From Methylocystis sp. (GTDB lineage Bacteria > Pseudomonadota > Alphaproteobacteria > Rhizobiales > Beijerinckiaceae): DNA of 64,000 nt. The DNA is taken from NCBI RefSeq assembly GCF_050181815.1, contig NZ_JBFXCV010000003.1; one strand, given 5' to 3'. This document shows, piece by piece, positions 4,169 to 29,261 of this stretch. A program made the position numbers and the translations under genes. Every line of letters begins with the position of its first letter. The stretch's first letter is position 1. Below the pieces are notes generated by a model. The model saw nothing but the letters and a program-made list of their open reading frames with translations, did not search any database and was not told the DNA's origin.

Positions 4169-4626
4169 CGCCGCCTCTGGGTTCCAAAGCCAATGTTAGG
4201 TTTCGATCTCTTGCGCGGTCAAGCAAACCGTTGATGCGACGCCGTGCGACGAAACGACGCTTTAAAAATTGATGCGCGACAAGAAGAAAAGCGACGCGCC
4301 TGTTTTCACATTCGGTTTCGAATTTCGCCCATGACCTGATCGCAATTTCGAAAAAAAATTCCGTTCTTCGAATGGACCGACGCGTCGAGGGGCTTCCAAA
4401 GAAAGTTAATCGCTCTCGGCGGCGCGACCTTCGAACGCGTCATCGTCATTCTCGAACAATTTGGAATCGGCTTGCCGAGACGACGCACTGTCACAAATGC
4501 TACTCTTCGCCGACGAAATGGGATGGCGACGCAGAATGCCCCTGACGGCCGGTTGGAGCTTGGAAGCGATAGGATACTGACCATGCGCCATGATCGACGC
4601 GCGGCGCGGCGTTTGAGTTGAAACCC

Positions 4627-7476
<2,850 letters not shown>

Positions 7477-23250: not shown

Positions 23251-24549
23251 CTACTCCGCTTTGGCGTCGATCGGCGCCGCTGGCTCATGATCGAGCTTCG
23301 GCGTGCGCTTGAACGTCGATTTGCGTCCACGCAGAGTCTGCAGGATTTTCGCGCCATTGGCGAAGGCGAGATAGATCATCAGCGGCGGAATTGACGCGAC
23401 CGTCTTCAGATAATCGACAATGGTCCCGCGCTTGAGCGCGAGATAGGGCGGCAGCGTGATGCCAAGCGCCACCAGCGCCGTCATGATCCCGATGATTTCC
23501 AACACATCCGCATAGGGCGCGAGCGATCCGTGCAAGAGCCCGCCAAGAACAAAGGCGATGAATCCGATGGCGGCGGTGGGGAAGAAAATCTGATGGGCGA
23601 TAAGGGAGATCGCCATCACGCGGCGCGTCAGGCTCCAAGGCGAGCGCCAGATCGGCAGAATGGTCTTCTGCGCCACCTGCACGAAGCCGTTGGACCAACG
23701 CCTTTGCTGACGGCGGAAGTCGCGGATTCCCTCCGGCACCTGGCCGGGAATCGGCGGTTCGGAAACGAACAAACCATGCCAGCCATTGAGCGCCGCGCGC
23801 ACGGTGAGATCGAGGTCCTCGCACAGCGAATAGTCCGACCAGCCGCCGGTGTCGTCGATCGTCGCGCGCCGCCAGATGCCGCCCGTGCCGTTGAACTGGA
23901 AGAGCCAGCCCGCATGCGCGCGCGAGCGCTGCTCGACGAGATAATGCCCGTCCTGCACGAGTCCCTGCGCGCGCGTCAGCCAGTTCTTTTCGAAATTCTG
24001 GAATTCGCAGCGCGACTGCACGAAGCCGACGCGATCGTCGATCAGAAACAGCGGCACCGTTCGCCTGAGCCAATTGGCCGGCGGGCGGAAGTCGGCGTCG
24101 AGCATCGCCACGAAAGGTTCATCGGTAATCGTGAGGCCGTGCGCGCAGGCGCCCGCCTTAAATCCCGAGCGGTCGGCTCGGCGCACATGGTCGATCACCG
24201 CGCCGCCGGCGCGAAGCTCCGCCGCCACCGCATCGGCGCGCGCGCTCGTCTCGTCGGTTGAATCATCGAGAAGCTGAATGCGCAGCTTTTCCTTGGGCCA
24301 GTCCAGAAGCGCGACGCAGCGCAAGGATTGCTCAGTGACGAGCGGCTCGTTAAACACCGGGATTTGCAGCAGCACTCGCGGCAAATCGCTGTCGGGCGTC
24401 GCGGGCGCTTCCGAATCGCGCACGCGCCGCAGCTGGTCATAGAAGAAGCGGCCGATGACGACGAGATAGCCGATCCCGATCGCCGCCAGTATCGAAGCGC
24501 AGACAATCACGACTGCGTCGACAAGGAATTGAAAAAGCCCCAGCACCAA
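23251..24549 (-). CDS. Membrane GT2 glycosyltransferase (cellulose-synthase-like)
   Basis: QIPVFNE, GFKAG, LDADF, EDLDL, QQRRW plus flanking TM helices. TTG start; GTG at 24546 is an alternative. Confidence 0.88.
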   Translation of the reverse strand: MVLGLFQFLVDAVVIVCASILAAIGIGYLVVIGRFFYDQLRRVRDSEAPATPDSDLPRVLLQIPVFNEPLVTEQSLRCVALLDWPKEKLRIQLLDDSTDETSARADAVAAELRAGGAVIDHVRRADRSGFKAGACAHGLTITDEPFVAMLDADFRPPANWLRRTVPLFLIDDRVGFVQSRCEFQNFEKNWLTRAQGLVQDGHYLVEQRSRAHAGWLFQFNGTGGIWRRATIDDTGGWSDYSLCEDLDLTVRAALNGWHGLFVSEPPIPGQVPEGIRDFRRQQRRWSNGFVQVAQKTILPIWRSPWSLTRRVMAISLIAHQIFFPTAAIGFIAFVLGGLLHGSLAPYADVLEIIGIMTALVALGITLPPYLALKRGTIVDYLKTVASIPPLMIYLAFANGAKILQTLRGRKSTFKRTPKLDHEPAAPIDAKAE

Positions 24550-24554
24550 ACGGC

Positions 24555-25712
24555 CTATCCTTCTTCGTGCGGAACCGGCGCAGGCCTCGCGCCCGCCCGG
24601 GTGTCCACGCTGCTCTTCGCCCAGACCACGCGATCAGTGACCCAGGCGTTCAACCAGACCGCCAGCATGGCCGCCTCGCGAACCACAAACACCGCCGGCG
24701 CGACCCAGGATAATTGCCATCCTTTGGCCATATAAAGCAATATCTCCACCGCAAACCACAGGAAAAGCGTTGCGGCCGCCGCCAGGGCGGGGTGGAGGCC
24801 GATCAGCGGCGCCGCCAGCGCCGAGGCCATAACTGCCGGAAGCGCTTGACATATTGGCTCGGCGAGGAAGGAGACGAGTTCGTCATTGCGGCGAATGACG
24901 CTCCAGCGCAACTGCCTTTGATAGACGTCCGCGAAATCGCGCGCGCCGAGTTCCTGCCGCACCGGCAGGTGCGAAAAAACCGGTCGTTTGCCGATGCGTC
25001 GCATCGCCTTGGCCAGGGCGTTGTCTTCGCCGACCGTATGAGAAATGGCGTTAAAGCCGCCGGCGCGCAGGAAGTCGGCGCGACGAAACAGCATGATCTT
25101 GCCGACTCCATGTCCCTGCCCCAACGCCGACGCCAGAAACAGCATGCGGGCATGCGGTCCGTTGATGATCGCGGCTTCGACATGGGCGGCGAAATTTTCG
25201 AGCCGCGCGCAATAGGGAATGGCGCAGACCAGCCCGACGTCGTCCGTCAGGTTCCGCATATGCTGCGCCAGCGCATCAGGCTCGAGCAGCACATTGGCGT
25301 CCTTCATCAAGATGACGTCATGGGTCGCCTCCATAAAGGGCGCGTAAAGATTGTCGACCTTCGGGCTTACCGCGAATTTCGCCGTGGAAAGAAGAACGCG
25401 CGACGGGATGGTCGGATGACGCGCGAAAATGGCGCGCATGCGTTGAACGGCAAGCGAGTCGAGGTCGGTTGCGGAGACCGTCACATCGAAGTCGCGATAA
25501 TGCTGCGTCAGCGCGGACTCTTGCGTGCGATCAAATTGATCGTCGACCAGCTTGACCGGCAGAACCACGGAGACCGCCGGCTGATCTCGTCGCGTGGCGC
25601 GTCGGGCGGCGATCCTAGGTTGCACGATGGTCGCCGCCACTGAGACGAAGAGCAAAGCAGTGGCGATGAGCCAGTAGATCGCCGCCGCCCATGTGATGAT
25701 TTCGAAAATCAC
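24555..25712 (-). CDS. Ceramide glucosyltransferase / HpnI-like (GT21) glycosyltransferase
   Basis: SPKVDNL, MKDANV, VGKIMLFRR, GEDNAL, RQLRW. GTG at 25712 overlaps the SDR stop (GTGA). Confidence 0.85.
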   Translation of the reverse strand: MIFEIITWAAAIYWLIATALLFVSVAATIVQPRIAARRATRRDQPAVSVVLPVKLVDDQFDRTQESALTQHYRDFDVTVSATDLDSLAVQRMRAIFARHPTIPSRVLLSTAKFAVSPKVDNLYAPFMEATHDVILMKDANVLLEPDALAQHMRNLTDDVGLVCAIPYCARLENFAAHVEAAIINGPHARMLFLASALGQGHGVGKIMLFRRADFLRAGGFNAISHTVGEDNALAKAMRRIGKRPVFSHLPVRQELGARDFADVYQRQLRWSVIRRNDELVSFLAEPICQALPAVMASALAAPLIGLHPALAAAATLFLWFAVEILLYMAKGWQLSWVAPAVFVVREAAMLAVWLNAWVTDRVVWAKSSVDTRAGARPAPVPHEEG

Positions 25713-26626
25713 CTTTCCCCGCGCTCCGACGTTTCCGGCACCTCGGCGGGAAACTGGCGCATGACGCCGTCGACGAGCGCCGCCGGAAAGAAGGAGAACA
25801 GGCGCATCGCCCAATACATATACCGAGGAAAGGCGATGACGTTGCGGCGGCGTTCAAGCCCTTTCTTGATGATGCGCGCGGCGTCTTCATCGGACAGAGC
25901 GCCGGGTTGCCATGATTCGACGCTCGCCGACGCCGATGGCTTTGCGACAGTGCGCGCCGAGAAGGGCGTCTTCACAATGGTGCGCGCCGACATCGGCGTC
26001 TTCACATAACCCGGCACGATCAGCGCGACATGCACGCCGTGCGACGCGAGCTGGGCGCGCAGGCAGTCCGCCCACATGTGAACGCATGCCTTCGCCGCGC
26101 AATAGGCTGGCGAATGGGGCAGCGCCCGCACGCCGGCCATCGAGCCCACGATGGCGATCCTGCCGCTTTTGCGCGCGCACATCGGCAATATGACGGGTTC
26201 GACCGTGTTGAATATCCCGGCGACGTTGATCGCGAGCATGGCGCGCACCGCATCAGGCGTTTCAACAATCTGGCCGGGCGACAGCCCTGTTGAGACGCCG
26301 GCGTTGGCGACGAGAATGTCGATCGGGCGCTTGTCGTGCGCGGACTGAACGATCCGCGCCATGACTTCGCGATCGCGCACGTCGGCGATGTGAGTCTCGG
26401 CCCCTTCAGCGCCGGCGTCGAGACAGGCGCGCGCGGTCGCCTCGAGCCGTTCGGCGTCGCGCCCAAGCAACACAAGGCTTGCGCCGTCGCGCGCATAGGC
26501 GAGCGCCAGGGCGCGCCCGATGCCGCTCGACGCCCCGGTGATAAGGACATGCGCCTTGCCGCCCTCTTGAGGGGAGCGGACGTTCACCGAAGGCGGCCGT
26601 GTGGGGGTGTCTTCCTGGACGCCCAT
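25709..26626 (-). CDS. Short-chain dehydrogenase/reductase
   Basis: ITGASSGIG, NAG, GSMAG and YCAAK catalytic motif. Confidence 0.9.
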   Translation of the reverse strand: MGVQEDTPTRPPSVNVRSPQEGGKAHVLITGASSGIGRALALAYARDGASLVLLGRDAERLEATARACLDAGAEGAETHIADVRDREVMARIVQSAHDKRPIDILVANAGVSTGLSPGQIVETPDAVRAMLAINVAGIFNTVEPVILPMCARKSGRIAIVGSMAGVRALPHSPAYCAAKACVHMWADCLRAQLASHGVHVALIVPGYVKTPMSARTIVKTPFSARTVAKPSASASVESWQPGALSDEDAARIIKKGLERRRNVIAFPRYMYWAMRLFSFFPAALVDGVMRQFPAEVPETSERGER

Positions 26627-26670
26627 CCCCTACCCCGCCCCGAAAGGCTTCGCCGTCCGACCCTCCCCCT
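26572..26670. repeat. Palindromic repeat (family C) spanning the MaoC/SDR junction inside coding sequence
   Basis: Terminal hairpins CCCTCTTGAGGGGAG and CCCTCCCCCTCGAGGGGAGG, with inner GTGGGGGTG/CCCCTACCCC arms. Confidence 0.55.
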
Positions 26671-27073
26671 CGAGGGGAGGATGAAAACGCAGAGTCGCCT
26701 CGCCGATGATGCCGGGCGCCCGCGCGGCGCCATAGGCCGTCAGACGGACGAAAATCTCATTTTCGGTCGCGCGCAGCACGCGACCTGACAGTCTGACGGT
26801 GTCGCCGCGCAGGATCGGCTGCACGAATTTTCCGGCAAGCGAAGAGATGACGAGGTCGCCGCGCCAAGCCCTCAGCATCGGCTCAAAAAAAGCGAGGAGC
26901 TTCATGCCATGCACCGGCGGCGCCGAGAGGCCGATCGCCGCCGCCACCGCATCGTCGAGATGCAAGGGATTGGCGTCGCCCGAAACCTCAGCATAGCGCG
27001 CCAGCGAAGGCGCGTCGAAGGGGCCGATGATCGTTTCGGGCAGCGTATCGCCGACTTTGATGTCGCCGCTCAT
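26630..27073 (-). CDS. MaoC-type (R)-hydroxyacyl dehydratase, catalytic subunit
   Basis: YAEVSGDANPLHLD..VHGM (D-x4-H hydratase-2 motif) and FVQPILRGD. Confidence 0.88.
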   Translation of the reverse strand: MSGDIKVGDTLPETIIGPFDAPSLARYAEVSGDANPLHLDDAVAAAIGLSAPPVHGMKLLAFFEPMLRAWRGDLVISSLAGKFVQPILRGDTVRLSGRVLRATENEIFVRLTAYGAARAPGIIGEATLRFHPPLEGEGRTAKPFGAG

Positions 27074-27465
27074 GACGCGCTCCCAAATCCGGCGCGCGGC
27101 ACCAGCCGCAGCAATGTTTCGATTCGCGCGCAGCTTTCGCCGCCGGGCGTCGCGACAGTCGCCGCCATGATCAGCCGCGGCGGGGTTTCCTCGCGGCTCA
27201 TAGTGACGCGCAAATCATAGCTCTCGCCGGCGACGAGAGGCATGTCGTAGGCGAAGCTCTGCGACTCATGCACGGGCACGACGTCGAGTTCGACGCAGAG
27301 GTCGCTCACCACCGAAAAAAGCGAGGGCTCGGCGAGCCAGACCGCAGGATAGGCGAGCGGGACGCTGGCGCCGTCGCCGCCGGTTTCCCGCGCATAAGCC
27401 GCGGCGCGCGCAGGATCGACGCGCAGGCGGAAAGGCCCGAGAGCGAGCGGCGGCTCAAGCGGCAT
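27070..27465 (-). CDS. Hotdog-fold MaoC-like partner subunit (HadA-like, probably non-catalytic)
   Basis: AAAYARETG..PLAY and VHESQSFAYDMPLVAG; lacks the D-x4-H motif; ATGA-coupled to the MaoC gene. Confidence 0.7.
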   Translation of the reverse strand: MPLEPPLALGPFRLRVDPARAAAYARETGGDGASVPLAYPAVWLAEPSLFSVVSDLCVELDVVPVHESQSFAYDMPLVAGESYDLRVTMSREETPPRLIMAATVATPGGESCARIETLLRLVPRAGFGSAS

Positions 27466-28690
27466 GACGCACGATCAGCACGGCGTTGATCCCTCCGAAA
27501 GCGAAAGAGTTCGACATTGCCGCATCGATCTTATGCTTGCGCGCGGCGTTGGGGACAACGTCGAGCGGACATTTCGGGTCTCGTTCCAGGAAATTGATGG
27601 TCGGCGGCGCGATCTGTTCACGCAGCGCCTTGATGGTGATGACGAGTTCCAGGCCGCCGCTCGCGCCGAGCGCATGTCCATGAATGGGTTTCGTCGACGA
27701 CACCGGCACCACGCGCCCATAGTCGCCAAATACGCGCAAAATCGCTTCGGCTTCGGTGATGTCATTGGCGTGAGTCGCGGTGCCGTGGGCGTTCACATAG
27801 TGAATGTCCTGCGGCGTCATTTCCGCGTCTTCCAAAGCCAGAGAGATCGAACTCGACGCGCCTTCGAGGTCGGGGCGCACCGGGTCCTTGGCGTCGCTCG
27901 TCGTGCCATAGCCCGCGAGTTCGCATAAGGGTTCGTGGCCCCGCGCCCGCGCCGACTCCTCGGTTTCAAGAATAAAGACCGCCGCGCCTTCGCCAAGCGA
28001 CATGCCGTTGCGGCCCTTTGAAAAGGGACGACACAGACTCGGGCTCAGGACGCGAAGCCCCTCCCAGGCGCGGATCGTCGCATTGATCACGCAGGCTTCG
28101 GCGCCGCCGACGATCGCTTTGTCGACCAGACCCAGTCTGATCATCTGCATGCCGAGTCCGATCGACTGCGTCGCCGAAGAGCAGGCGCTGCCGATCGCGA
28201 AGGTCGGACCGAGACAGGAATAGCGCATCCCGATCGTCGCTGGCGCCGCGCTCGGAATGAGCTTCGGGACGCTCAGCATCTCGGGCCTGGTCCCCTCGAC
28301 GTAATAGCGATAGATGCCGTCCTCGATCGTCGTCATCCCGCCGATGCCCGACCCGATGATGACGGCGGTTCCGGGCCCGGCGATGTCTTTACGCTTAAAC
28401 CCCGCCTGCGCCATCGCTTCGTCGGCGGCGACGATGCAGAACTGGGTAAAGGGATCGCAGAACGGAAGGATATTGGCTTCGATATGTTCGGCAGGATCGA
28501 AGCCGGGCACCTGCGCCGCGATCTTGATGCGGCCGTCGTAGGGGCGTTCGGTCTTGAGCGGACGAATCTGGCCGACGCCGTCGCGCGCTGCTTCCCAGAG
28601 TTTTTGAGCGCCGACGCCCGAGGCGCAGACTGCGCCCATGCCGGAAATAACGACGCGGCGCCCCTGGGGGCGCGCTCGCGAGAACGCCAT
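27455..28690 (-). CDS. Beta-ketoacyl-ACP synthase (FabF/NodE-like)
   Basis: Cys-His-His triad SACSS / NAHGT / GHALG, SNSFAFGG, and the WEGLRVLSPSLCRPFS block that resembles NodE. Confidence 0.93.
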   Translation of the reverse strand: MAFSRARPQGRRVVISGMGAVCASGVGAQKLWEAARDGVGQIRPLKTERPYDGRIKIAAQVPGFDPAEHIEANILPFCDPFTQFCIVAADEAMAQAGFKRKDIAGPGTAVIIGSGIGGMTTIEDGIYRYYVEGTRPEMLSVPKLIPSAAPATIGMRYSCLGPTFAIGSACSSATQSIGLGMQMIRLGLVDKAIVGGAEACVINATIRAWEGLRVLSPSLCRPFSKGRNGMSLGEGAAVFILETEESARARGHEPLCELAGYGTTSDAKDPVRPDLEGASSSISLALEDAEMTPQDIHYVNAHGTATHANDITEAEAILRVFGDYGRVVPVSSTKPIHGHALGASGGLELVITIKALREQIAPPTINFLERDPKCPLDVVPNAARKHKIDAAMSNSFAFGGINAVLIVRHAA

Positions 28691-28966
28691 TTACTGCTTC
28701 TCGCGCTCTTTCTGAATATGGTCCGCGATCGCCTCGATCAGACTTTTCACGTCCTTGGCTTCCTGCAGCGACCCATCCATCGGGATATAGACGTTGAACT
28801 TCTCTTCGAGCGCCGTGAGAATCATGACGATGTCCACGGATTTGAGATCGAGACTCTCGATCGACGCGTCGGGCGTGATCTTGCTTTTGTCGACCATGCC
28901 TTCAGACGCGATCACCTCTACGATCTCGTCGATGAGCTGGCTCCTATCCTGCACATTGTCCGTCAC
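28691..28966 (-). CDS. Specialised acyl carrier protein
   Basis: ITPDASIESLDLKSVDIVMILTALEEKF (Ser in KSVD instead of DSLD); GTG start after GGAGGG. Confidence 0.85.
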   Translation of the reverse strand: MTDNVQDRSQLIDEIVEVIASEGMVDKSKITPDASIESLDLKSVDIVMILTALEEKFNVYIPMDGSLQEAKDVKSLIEAIADHIQKEREKQ

Positions 28967-29261
28967 GGGTCCCTCCGTTTCAGGCTTCTTCGCCGCTTCG
29001 GCGACAACTGACGCGCACGCGGCGCTTTGACGCGGCGCGTCGATCCGACGCCTCTTAATCGGGTCGCGCGGTCGGACCGCCCGCCCTTATCTCGGCTGTT
29101 CCGCCCTCGCGCGCTACCCGCCCGCCCGAAGCGCGATCGGGACTGGTTAAGGCGTTTGGCCCCGAAAATAAAGCCCGTCCCGCCATTCGCGGATTAGCGG
29201 TGGCCCGCCGCACAGGTTCATGCGAAAAGGCCGCCCGAAACAACGGAGGGCGACGGGGCAA

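Follow-up and report, generated by a model that had tools for sequence, protein, structure and literature searches.

Within a window of 64,000 nucleotides from a Methylocystis genome of 3.39 Mb (genome G000; contig C3, positions 6799-70798), seven co-directional open reading frames (ORFs) are read from the minus strand between positions 28966 and 23251. As called with the curated model cut-offs of Pfam and NCBIfam, against which all bit scores are quoted here, they encode, in order, a dedicated acyl carrier protein (ACP), a beta-ketoacyl-ACP synthase (KAS), a hotdog-fold protein named HotX, a MaoC-type dehydratase subunit, a short-chain dehydrogenase/reductase (SDR) and two glycosyltransferases, of families GT21 and GT2. 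A preliminary description of this stretch, made from its sequence alone, had listed the same seven genes from ACP to GT2, and the ORFs and domain calls agree with it. Homology and gene context make it likely that this operon is one half of a divided ceramide-type glycolipid pathway, the half that supplies the acyl chain, carries out the reduction and attaches the head group; confidence in the assignment of individual steps, which rest on homology, fold and gene context, is lower.

The genes are as tightly spaced as had been described, and with the start of GT21 moved, no junction exceeds an 11-nt overlap or a 5-nt gap. ACP and KAS abut (0 nt), KAS and HotX overlap by 11 nt, HotX and MaoC overlap by 4 nt (ATGA), and gaps of 3 nt and 5 nt separate MaoC from SDR and GT21 from GT2, respectively. 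The longest ORF for GT21 (TTG 25814) would share 106 nt with that of the SDR, and translation from GTG 25712 gives a protein of 385 residues, which fits homologues of 378-393 residues; the likely start is thus GTG 25712, which overlaps the SDR stop codon by 4 nt (GTGA) and lies behind GGGGAAAGG.

The ACP (28691..28966; 91 residues; PF00550, 28.9 bits) scores under every curated ACP equivalog cut-off, those of AcpM and PRK06508 included. Its attachment serine, which is conserved, stands in the sequence LKSVD, where DSLD is usual. Since other families carry D, E or A in place of the lysine, the K is a lineage variant. A family-specific motif, EGMxD...IVMIL..EE.F, is conserved, as is the serine, across the ACPs of the clusters in Hyphomicrobiales. 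A BLAST comparison with the Spt-linked ACP of a Caulobacter-type locus (L084) gave no similarity (E 5.5). The adjoining FabF-like KAS (27455..28690; 411 residues; PF00109 and PF02801) has an intact Cys169/His302/His337 triad. It fails the test for a housekeeping FabF (390 bits on TIGR03150, cut-off 494), and its identity to the FabF encoded beside FabG in the same genome is 33%, and to FabB 31%. In a phylogenetic tree, the KAS proteins of all related clusters form one clade (support 99/97), with NodE and the genome's own FabF and FabB outside it. The previously noted resemblance to NodE therefore stands at the level of the superfamily, with 40-43% identity to the rhizobial proteins, but does not extend to the clade.

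The clade also contains a second KAS of this genome, encoded outside the window (contig C103, 2592-3815) and sharing 67% identity with that of the operon. It stands alone, with no ACP gene, between galE/galU-like genes for UDP-sugar supply and murA; by analogy with FabF1XL/FabF2XL or KasA/KasB, it may be a partner elongase.

HotX (27070..27465; 131 residues) matched no Pfam or NCBIfam model, and its alignment lacks the D-x-N-P-x-H motif. A profile search of the PDB placed HadA first (E 0.011), and the AlphaFold model (pLDDT 83) is a single hotdog fold, for which Foldseek ranked highest the partner chains in the crystal structures of HadBC and HadAB (TM approximately 0.6, E 5e-5); the matched chain of the HadAB complex is HadA, and that of the HadBC complex is presumably its counterpart. 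HotX is accordingly listed as a non-catalytic, HadA/HadC-like single-hotdog partner on the basis of profile and fold. MaoC (26630..27073; 147 residues; PF01575, 50 bits) is a HadB-like (3R)-hydroxyacyl dehydratase subunit in which the hydratase-2 motif, YAEVSGDANPLH-x5-A / YAEVSGDANPLHLDDAVA, is read intact from the translation. Its best NCBIfam model is HadB (NF010246), the equivalog test for which it fails (46 bits, cut-off 203), and its best PDB matches were 4rv2_B, the MaoC-family chain of the Mycobacterium smegmatis HadAB dimer, and HadB. From sequence and modelled fold, MaoC and HotX are predicted to form a heterodimer of catalytic and non-catalytic hotdog subunits of the HadAB type, with MaoC not being a HadB orthologue. 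The KSVD signature of the ACP, the intact KAS triad and the HadAB-like pairing of a motif-bearing MaoC with a motif-free partner had each been proposed in the preliminary description and are borne out.

The fifth gene encodes a classical SDR of 305 residues with a hydrophobic C-terminal extension (25709..26626; PF00106, 157 bits). It carries the TGxxxGIG and YxxxK motifs, and its best NCBIfam model is the generic PRK07024; a search of the PDB with its sequence returned generic SDRs only, with no KDSR-specific signal found. Of the seven proteins it has diverged most among close relatives (69-91% identity). An in-frame, 30-bp tandem duplication (25950-26006; 1.9 copies, 88% match) encodes VKTPMSARTI/VKTPFSARTV, in a variable stretch ahead of the C-terminal hydrophobic segment.

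The GT21 protein (24555..25712; PF13506, 155 bits, cut-off 21.7) aligns over its full length with a solved ceramide glucosyltransferase (26qf; E 1e-30, residues 21-374 against 26-385), with the PK(V/I)(D/N)NL, (G/A)ED...AK and R..RW motifs in register, and the earlier assignment of lipid-type glycosyltransferases is upheld. The last gene encodes a membrane GT2 of 432 residues (23251..24549; PF13632/PF13641/PF00535) with a cellulose-synthase-like catalytic domain, a QQRRW motif and weak similarity to BcsA (66 bits). In all related clusters it comes after GT21, or straight after the SDR.

A serine palmitoyltransferase (SPT) and any match to a sphingolipid locus had been reported absent, which is correct for the operon itself but not for the contig. 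In a distant Beijerinckiaceae locus (L048), the order ACP-KAS-HotX-MaoC-SDR-GT2 adjoins three convergent genes, for a Lipid_DES desaturase with a sphingolipid-desaturase N-terminal domain, a 380-residue protein without a Pfam match (c5) and a class I/II aminotransferase-fold enzyme. A search of the Methylocystis genome with these three proteins revealed a four-gene, plus-strand operon at C3:75524-79679, past the end of the window and 39.8 kb from the seven-gene operon. Its first gene (C3:75524-76762) encodes an SPT-like alpha-oxoamine synthase (AOS); it is followed by genes for c5, annotated as an N-acetyltransferase domain-containing protein of the GNAT type, a Lipid_DES desaturase (DES) and an FA_hydroxylase-family protein (FAH). 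AOS attains 291 bits of the 500 required by NF047599, 271 of 640 for NF047600, 207 of 670 for NF047603 and 341 of 426 for bioF. Its scores on the Spt models are the highest among the four oxoamine synthases of the genome, the others being HemA and two BioF-like paralogues encoded elsewhere, and a Methylocystaceae protein has been counted as SPT in the literature (PMC10411912).

In three alphaproteobacterial genomes, clusters of the type Spt-ACP-(extended SDR)-AMP-ligase are accompanied, at a distance of approximately 8 kb, by a gene for a GNAT with which c5 shares 34-38% identity (E 1e-72 to 1e-78); in the Caulobacter sphingolipid locus, this position is that of bcerS. Because its homologues sit at this position in loci of the Caulobacter-type layout, c5 is treated here as a putative N-acyltransferase of the bCerS family.

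No gene for the acyl-ACP synthetase AasR was found beside AOS. The sole AasR-like match in the genome is a 952-residue ORF of the fatty acyl-AMP ligase (FAAL) type within the window (4618-7476, plus strand), 34% identical to the ligase of Caulobacter-type sphingolipid loci; its fatty acyl-AMP ligase domain (PRK09192, 432 bits, under the cut-off) is joined to a C-terminal extension of approximately 270 residues. This ORF is followed by one of 1004 residues and by further ORFs to approximately 11709, a group that resembles another lipid-type cluster.

Conserved homologous clusters, for which the preliminary description had proposed a search, were found. A profile of HotX homologues retrieved 53 loci from species-representative genomes, the genes of the related GC-rich loci being called by means of the GC content at the third codon position. 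All seven genes occur in identical order in approximately 45 loci of Methylocystis and Methylosinus, mostly flanked by mutA and a gene for a DsbD_N protein, and with such recurrence the arrangement is not due to chance. The ACP-KAS-HotX-MaoC core is present in 27 of the 121 genomes of the family, from 10 genera, and also in at least six further families of the order (Hyphomicrobiales, to judge from the titles under which the related loci are recorded). The two operons are physically joined in some relatives: ACP-KAS-HotX-MaoC-SDR-GT21-GT2 stands tail to tail with FAH-DES-c5-AOS as one 11-gene locus in L095, and L096 and L097 are like it, the merged loci representing three sister genera, with L048 similar. 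Elsewhere the components share a single operon, c5-ACP-KAS-(HotX)-MaoC-SDR-GT21-GT2-GT2, in L066 and L091 (the latter listed without HotX), and in five loci (L064, L066, L072, L074 and L091), which represent three families, the gene immediately preceding ACP is c5.

The two gene sets also occur together across genomes. Of the 27 family genomes with HotX, 25 encode an orthologous GT21, 24 an orthologous AOS and 23 an orthologous c5; each of the three was detected in 0 of the 94 HotX-negative genomes. At the level of the order, c5 is encoded by 78 of 301 genomes, which include 22 of the 24 solid HotX-positive genomes, and from this nesting it follows that the KAS core is accessory to a wider c5/AOS system. 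The best plasmid match of the KAS (48% identity), from Xanthomonas sacchari, was rejected as a related system, the divergent GNAT and the ACP encoded there being dissimilar to c5 and the operon ACP.

The distribution of the SDR bears directly on its function. CerR of Caulobacter and KDSR of eukaryotes are 3-keto reductases of sphingolipid synthesis, and KDSR is itself a classical SDR. Homologues of the SDR subfamily occur without an adjacent KAS core in the orders c5-SDR-GT21-GT2-FAH (L089), AOS-SDR-c5 (L092) and c5-SDR followed by AOS (L090), and the genomes of L089 and L090 lack the core altogether; the SDRs of L089-L092 and L066 share the best NCBIfam model of the window SDR. Conversely, the core stands without an adjacent SDR in six loci. 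When the genome was searched with two CerR candidates, no orthologue was found; the best matches (approximately 30% identity over approximately 200 residues, E 1e-10 to 1e-13) read as generic epimerase-family similarity. Because its homologues travel with AOS and c5 in the absence of the core, the core occurs without it, and a CerR orthologue is missing, the SDR is probably a sphingoid or ceramide 3-keto reductase that replaces CerR, and not a fatty-acid ketoreductase.

The preliminary description had assigned this SDR instead to a self-contained fatty-acid synthase (FAS) cycle, in which KAS, SDR ketoreductase and HadAB-like dehydratase, with no enoyl reductase, would produce an unsaturated or hydroxylated chain that was itself mono- and di-glycosylated, with no link to sphingolipids. 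It is true that all four FAS-type activities can be read in the operon and that its seven genes are translationally coupled and kept as a unit. However, the operon encodes no enzyme that would release the chain from the ACP or transfer it, whereas a bCerS-family gene stands directly upstream of ACP in other families; the SDR homologues and the core are found apart, as set out above; and the near-perfect co-occurrence and repeated physical fusion with AOS-c5-DES-FAH also speak against a closed cycle. The ketoreductase assignment is thus the less likely one for the SDR, and the closed cycle of elongation and glycosylation is considered improbable.

The observations described comprise gene content, synteny, co-occurrence, protein family and fold. 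The presence of AOS, c5, DES and FAH on the same contig, the merged loci, the co-occurrence, the operons that dispense with the core and the match of GT21 to ceramide glucosyltransferase argue together for a place of the operon in sphingolipid synthesis, and a sequence of events may be proposed in which the substrates, the products, the order of the steps and the recipient of the ACP-bound chain are conjectural. A 3-keto long-chain base would arise when AOS condenses an acyl thioester with an amino acid (serine, presumably); c5 would N-acylate this base, and DES and FAH would modify it. The SDR would reduce the 3-keto group, in the role of CerR or KDSR. GT21 would then set the first hexose on the 1-hydroxyl group of the ceramide, and GT2 would add at least one further sugar. 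Finally, ACP, KAS and the HadAB-like dehydratase would extend a housekeeping acyl chain on the private ACP, borrowing FabG and possibly FabI, and the resulting longer and/or alpha,beta-unsaturated chain would be passed to the bCerS-type acyltransferase or to AOS. Of the two candidate recipients, AOS is favoured by the preference of Caulobacter Spt for a dedicated acyl-ACP (PMC9386255), and c5 by its location directly upstream of ACP in the five loci named above. With regard to the head group, the sharing of operons between GT21 and a bCerS-family gene (L066, L089 and L091) makes ceramide the likeliest acceptor, and GT21 and GT2 together probably glycosylate ceramide.

With the SDR reassigned, the core has neither a ketoreductase nor an enoyl reductase of its own, and for this reason it resembles the NodF/NodE and AcpXL systems. 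In those systems (NodF/NodE, with or without NodN, and the AcpXL clusters), a special chain is built on a private ACP with the help of housekeeping FabG and FabI. ACP-KAS-HadAB would then be a portable add-on for the building of a special acyl chain. A more specific version of the scheme, which is tentative and considered unlikely, takes the lack of an enoyl reductase to mean that the core stops at the trans-2-enoyl stage. The alpha,beta-unsaturated acyl-ACP would be handed to the SPT-like synthase, so that the 4-ene of a sphingosine-type base would be built in at condensation, without oxygen; reduction of the ketone by the SDR and glycosylation by GT21 and GT2 would then lead to a eukaryote-like glucosylceramide. 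If so, type II methanotrophs might owe the shape of their intracytoplasmic membranes in part to such a glucosylceramide.

Several points weigh against a sphingolipid role for the operon. The main weakness is that ceramide is unreported from these bacteria: ceramides were not among the lipids reported by a lipidomic study of Methylosinus trichosporium OB3b, which had not targeted them (PMC9239053). AOS falls below all three curated Spt cut-offs and scores higher on bioF, and serine is its presumed substrate. The Fisher p values for co-occurrence with HotX, 7e-24 to 5e-21, ignore kinship among the 10 genera. The exceptions to co-occurrence, besides incomplete assemblies, are two genomes of one genus (G534 and G576) that carry the HotX/KAS core without orthologous AOS, c5 or GT21. 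In Methylocystis, the operon and AOS-c5-DES-FAH stand 40 kb apart. In three loci of other families (L067, L070 and L073), the core is not beside c5, SDR or GT21; it adjoins genes for a PlsC-type acyltransferase, a GT4, a Frag1-family membrane protein and a desaturase. Given these PlsC-type neighbours, the core looks like a portable module with a use in more than one lipid pathway and not in sphingolipid synthesis alone. Lastly, bacterial GT21 enzymes (Pgt) favour diacylglycerol (DAG) over ceramide, though ceramide is accepted (PMC3972451).

This last property has a bearing on a second alternative, in which the two glycosyltransferases would make a glycosyl-DAG such as the MGDG of Methylosinus OB3b, in the manner of Pgt from Agrobacterium and Mesorhizobium, with the acyl genes tailoring only the chains of the DAG. 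Viewed on its own, such a role is plausible. A plcP-agt mutant of OB3b retains MGDG, from which its authors inferred an "as-yet-unidentified glycosyltransferase" (PMC9239053), and Pgt is itself a GT21 enzyme that prefers DAG (PMC3972451). Nevertheless, the operons that contain GT21 and GT2 also include the bCerS-family gene and a hydroxylase gene (L066, L089 and L091), orthologous GT21 co-occurs with AOS and c5 across the 121 family genomes, and no gene for a phospholipase C or other DAG-forming enzyme was found near the operon. A DAG product is therefore held to have a small chance of being correct. Much less plausible still is a role in the decoration of bacteriohopanepolyols by an HpnI-like GT21. 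Methanotrophs are rich in hopanoids and HpnI (TIGR03472) is the best NCBIfam match of the protein, but the HpnI test is failed (155 bits, cut-off 310), a second GT21 paralogue, on contig C79, scores higher (189 bits), and the flanks of the operon hold no hpn genes. Equally far-fetched would be a Nod-factor-like lipo-oligosaccharide formed by NodF/NodE/NodN-like chain synthesis and a NodC-like processive GT2, since the parallel of ACP, KAS and MaoC with those proteins, the 40-43% identity to NodE and the QxxRW motif of GT2 are outweighed by a KAS clade separate from NodE (that of N. galegae included), by 28 bits on the NodC model against a cut-off of 550, and by the absence of nodA and nodB homologues among the neighbours examined. 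The AcpXL pathway of lipid A was rejected, in agreement with the preliminary description: the ACP scores 30 bits on PRK06508 (NF005079; cut-off 83), and the operon and its immediate neighbourhood are free of FabZ-type and LpxXL genes.

The proposed ceramide-type pathway may be set beside several known systems. The Caulobacter-type locus consists of spt-acpR-cerR-aasR together with bcerS, and Sgt1 and Sgt2 provide for glycosphingolipid (PMC11087976, PMC9386255, PMC9393093). Common to both are an oxoamine synthase, a bCerS-family GNAT, a dedicated ACP, a reductase, glycosyltransferases and an adjacent FA_hydroxylase-type gene. The Methylocystis genes differ from that locus in having a classical SDR in place of the NDUFA9-like CerR, an ACP unrelated to the AcpR type by BLAST, a KAS and HadAB-like dehydratase in place of AasR, an AOS that fails the three curated Spt models, glycosyltransferases of the GT21 and GT2 types, and an additional DES-like desaturase. 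With the eukaryotic glucosylceramide pathway (SPT, KDSR, CerS, DEGS, SUR2/FA2H and UGCG), five families are held in common, namely AOS, classical SDR, Lipid_DES, FA_hydroxylase and GT21, whereas the N-acyltransferase is a bacterial GNAT and not Lag1/CerS, and the private ACP/KAS/dehydratase set and the GT2 are additional.

With regard to the core, NodF/NodE(NodN) feeding NodA offers a parallel in its private ACP, specialised KAS, MaoC-type hotdog protein, housekeeping reductases and N-acyltransferase acting on an amine, although the KAS clade, ACP signature, acceptor and acyltransferase all differ. Mycobacterial HadAB/HadBC, with KasA and AcpM, likewise combines a catalytic MaoC subunit with a non-catalytic hotdog partner; unlike mycobacterial FAS-II, the present set scores 46 bits on HadB against a cut-off of 203, is found in a proteobacterial setting and has no assigned counterpart of InhA or MabA. 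The rhizobial AcpXL cluster for very-long-chain fatty acids (acpXL-fabZXL-fabF2XL-fabF1XL-adh-lpxXL) is similar in its dedicated ACP, KAS and dehydratase, its use of housekeeping FabG/FabI and the occurrence of a second KAS paralogue in the genome; it differs in that a MaoC pair here takes the place of FabZ, LpxXL is lacking, and linkage is to ceramide-type and not to lipid A genes. Pgt of Agrobacterium tumefaciens and Mesorhizobium loti is, like the operon GT21, a bacterial homologue of glucosylceramide synthase that acts on a membrane lipid and can accept ceramide (PMC3972451). Compared by description, Pgt is processive, DAG-preferring, phosphate-regulated and stand-alone, whereas the GT21 here is accompanied by bCerS, SDR and hydroxylase genes.

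Most knowledge of bacterial sphingolipids comes from Sphingomonadales, Caulobacter, Bacteroidota and some deltaproteobacteria, where the Spt/bCerS/CerR scheme applies. A search of the literature on glycolipids, sphingolipids and ceramides of methanotrophs and Methylocystis, and on KAS or dehydratase genes associated with SPT, yielded no description of the cluster, in keeping with the earlier view of it as an uncharacterised glycolipid pathway. Nor was any publication found that assigns the SDR, the KAS/hotdog module or the pair of GT21 and GT2 to a sphingolipid pathway. Methylocystaceae have been noted to possess an SPT homologue, and a connection between ceramide and intracytoplasmic membranes has been the subject of speculation (PMC10411912). 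The novelty, if membership of the pathway, which is rated likely, holds, would reside in a bacterial sphingolipid synthesis with a different reductase, tailoring and head-group enzymes of eukaryotic type, and an optional private chain-builder. The locus thus predicts a second sphingolipid architecture in Beijerinckiaceae/Methylocystaceae as well as in six or more further families of Hyphomicrobiales, in which a classical SDR would stand for CerR, GT21, DES and hydroxylase would be of eukaryotic type, and a private KAS/dehydratase chain-builder would sometimes be present. Were this true, methanotrophs would gain a new class of lipid, of value as biomarkers and for insight into their intracytoplasmic membranes; the many bacteria in which Spt and bCerS occur without CerR would have their missing reductase accounted for; and the finding would bear on the proposed alphaproteobacterial roots of eukaryotic sphingolipid enzymes (PMC10411912). 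A published knockout method for Methylosinus trichosporium OB3b makes the prediction directly testable in that organism (PMC9239053).

In five related loci of other families (L064, L068, L069, L071 and L074), genes for DUF4833, an LptF/LptG-like permease and PgpA recur beside c5, ACP and KAS, a hint that this lipid system may exist in variants that differ in export and head group. Around the Methylocystis operon itself, the flanking genes are unrelated and on the opposite strand, with mutA upstream and the genes for the DsbD_N protein and AlgH downstream. Scans for sigma-70 promoters and terminators inside the operon gave nothing above shuffled expectation. In the divergent spacer between ACP and mutA, a 34-nt motif, GGGCTTTATTTTCGGGGCCAAACGCCTTAACCAG (29143..29176, minus strand), was not flagged by the scan for the sigma-70 consensus. 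It is the sole block of this spacer kept from Methylocystis to Methylosinus, the remainder being variable, and it may be a promoter (CTTTAT-N16-CTTAAC) or an operator, for either the ACP or the mutA side.

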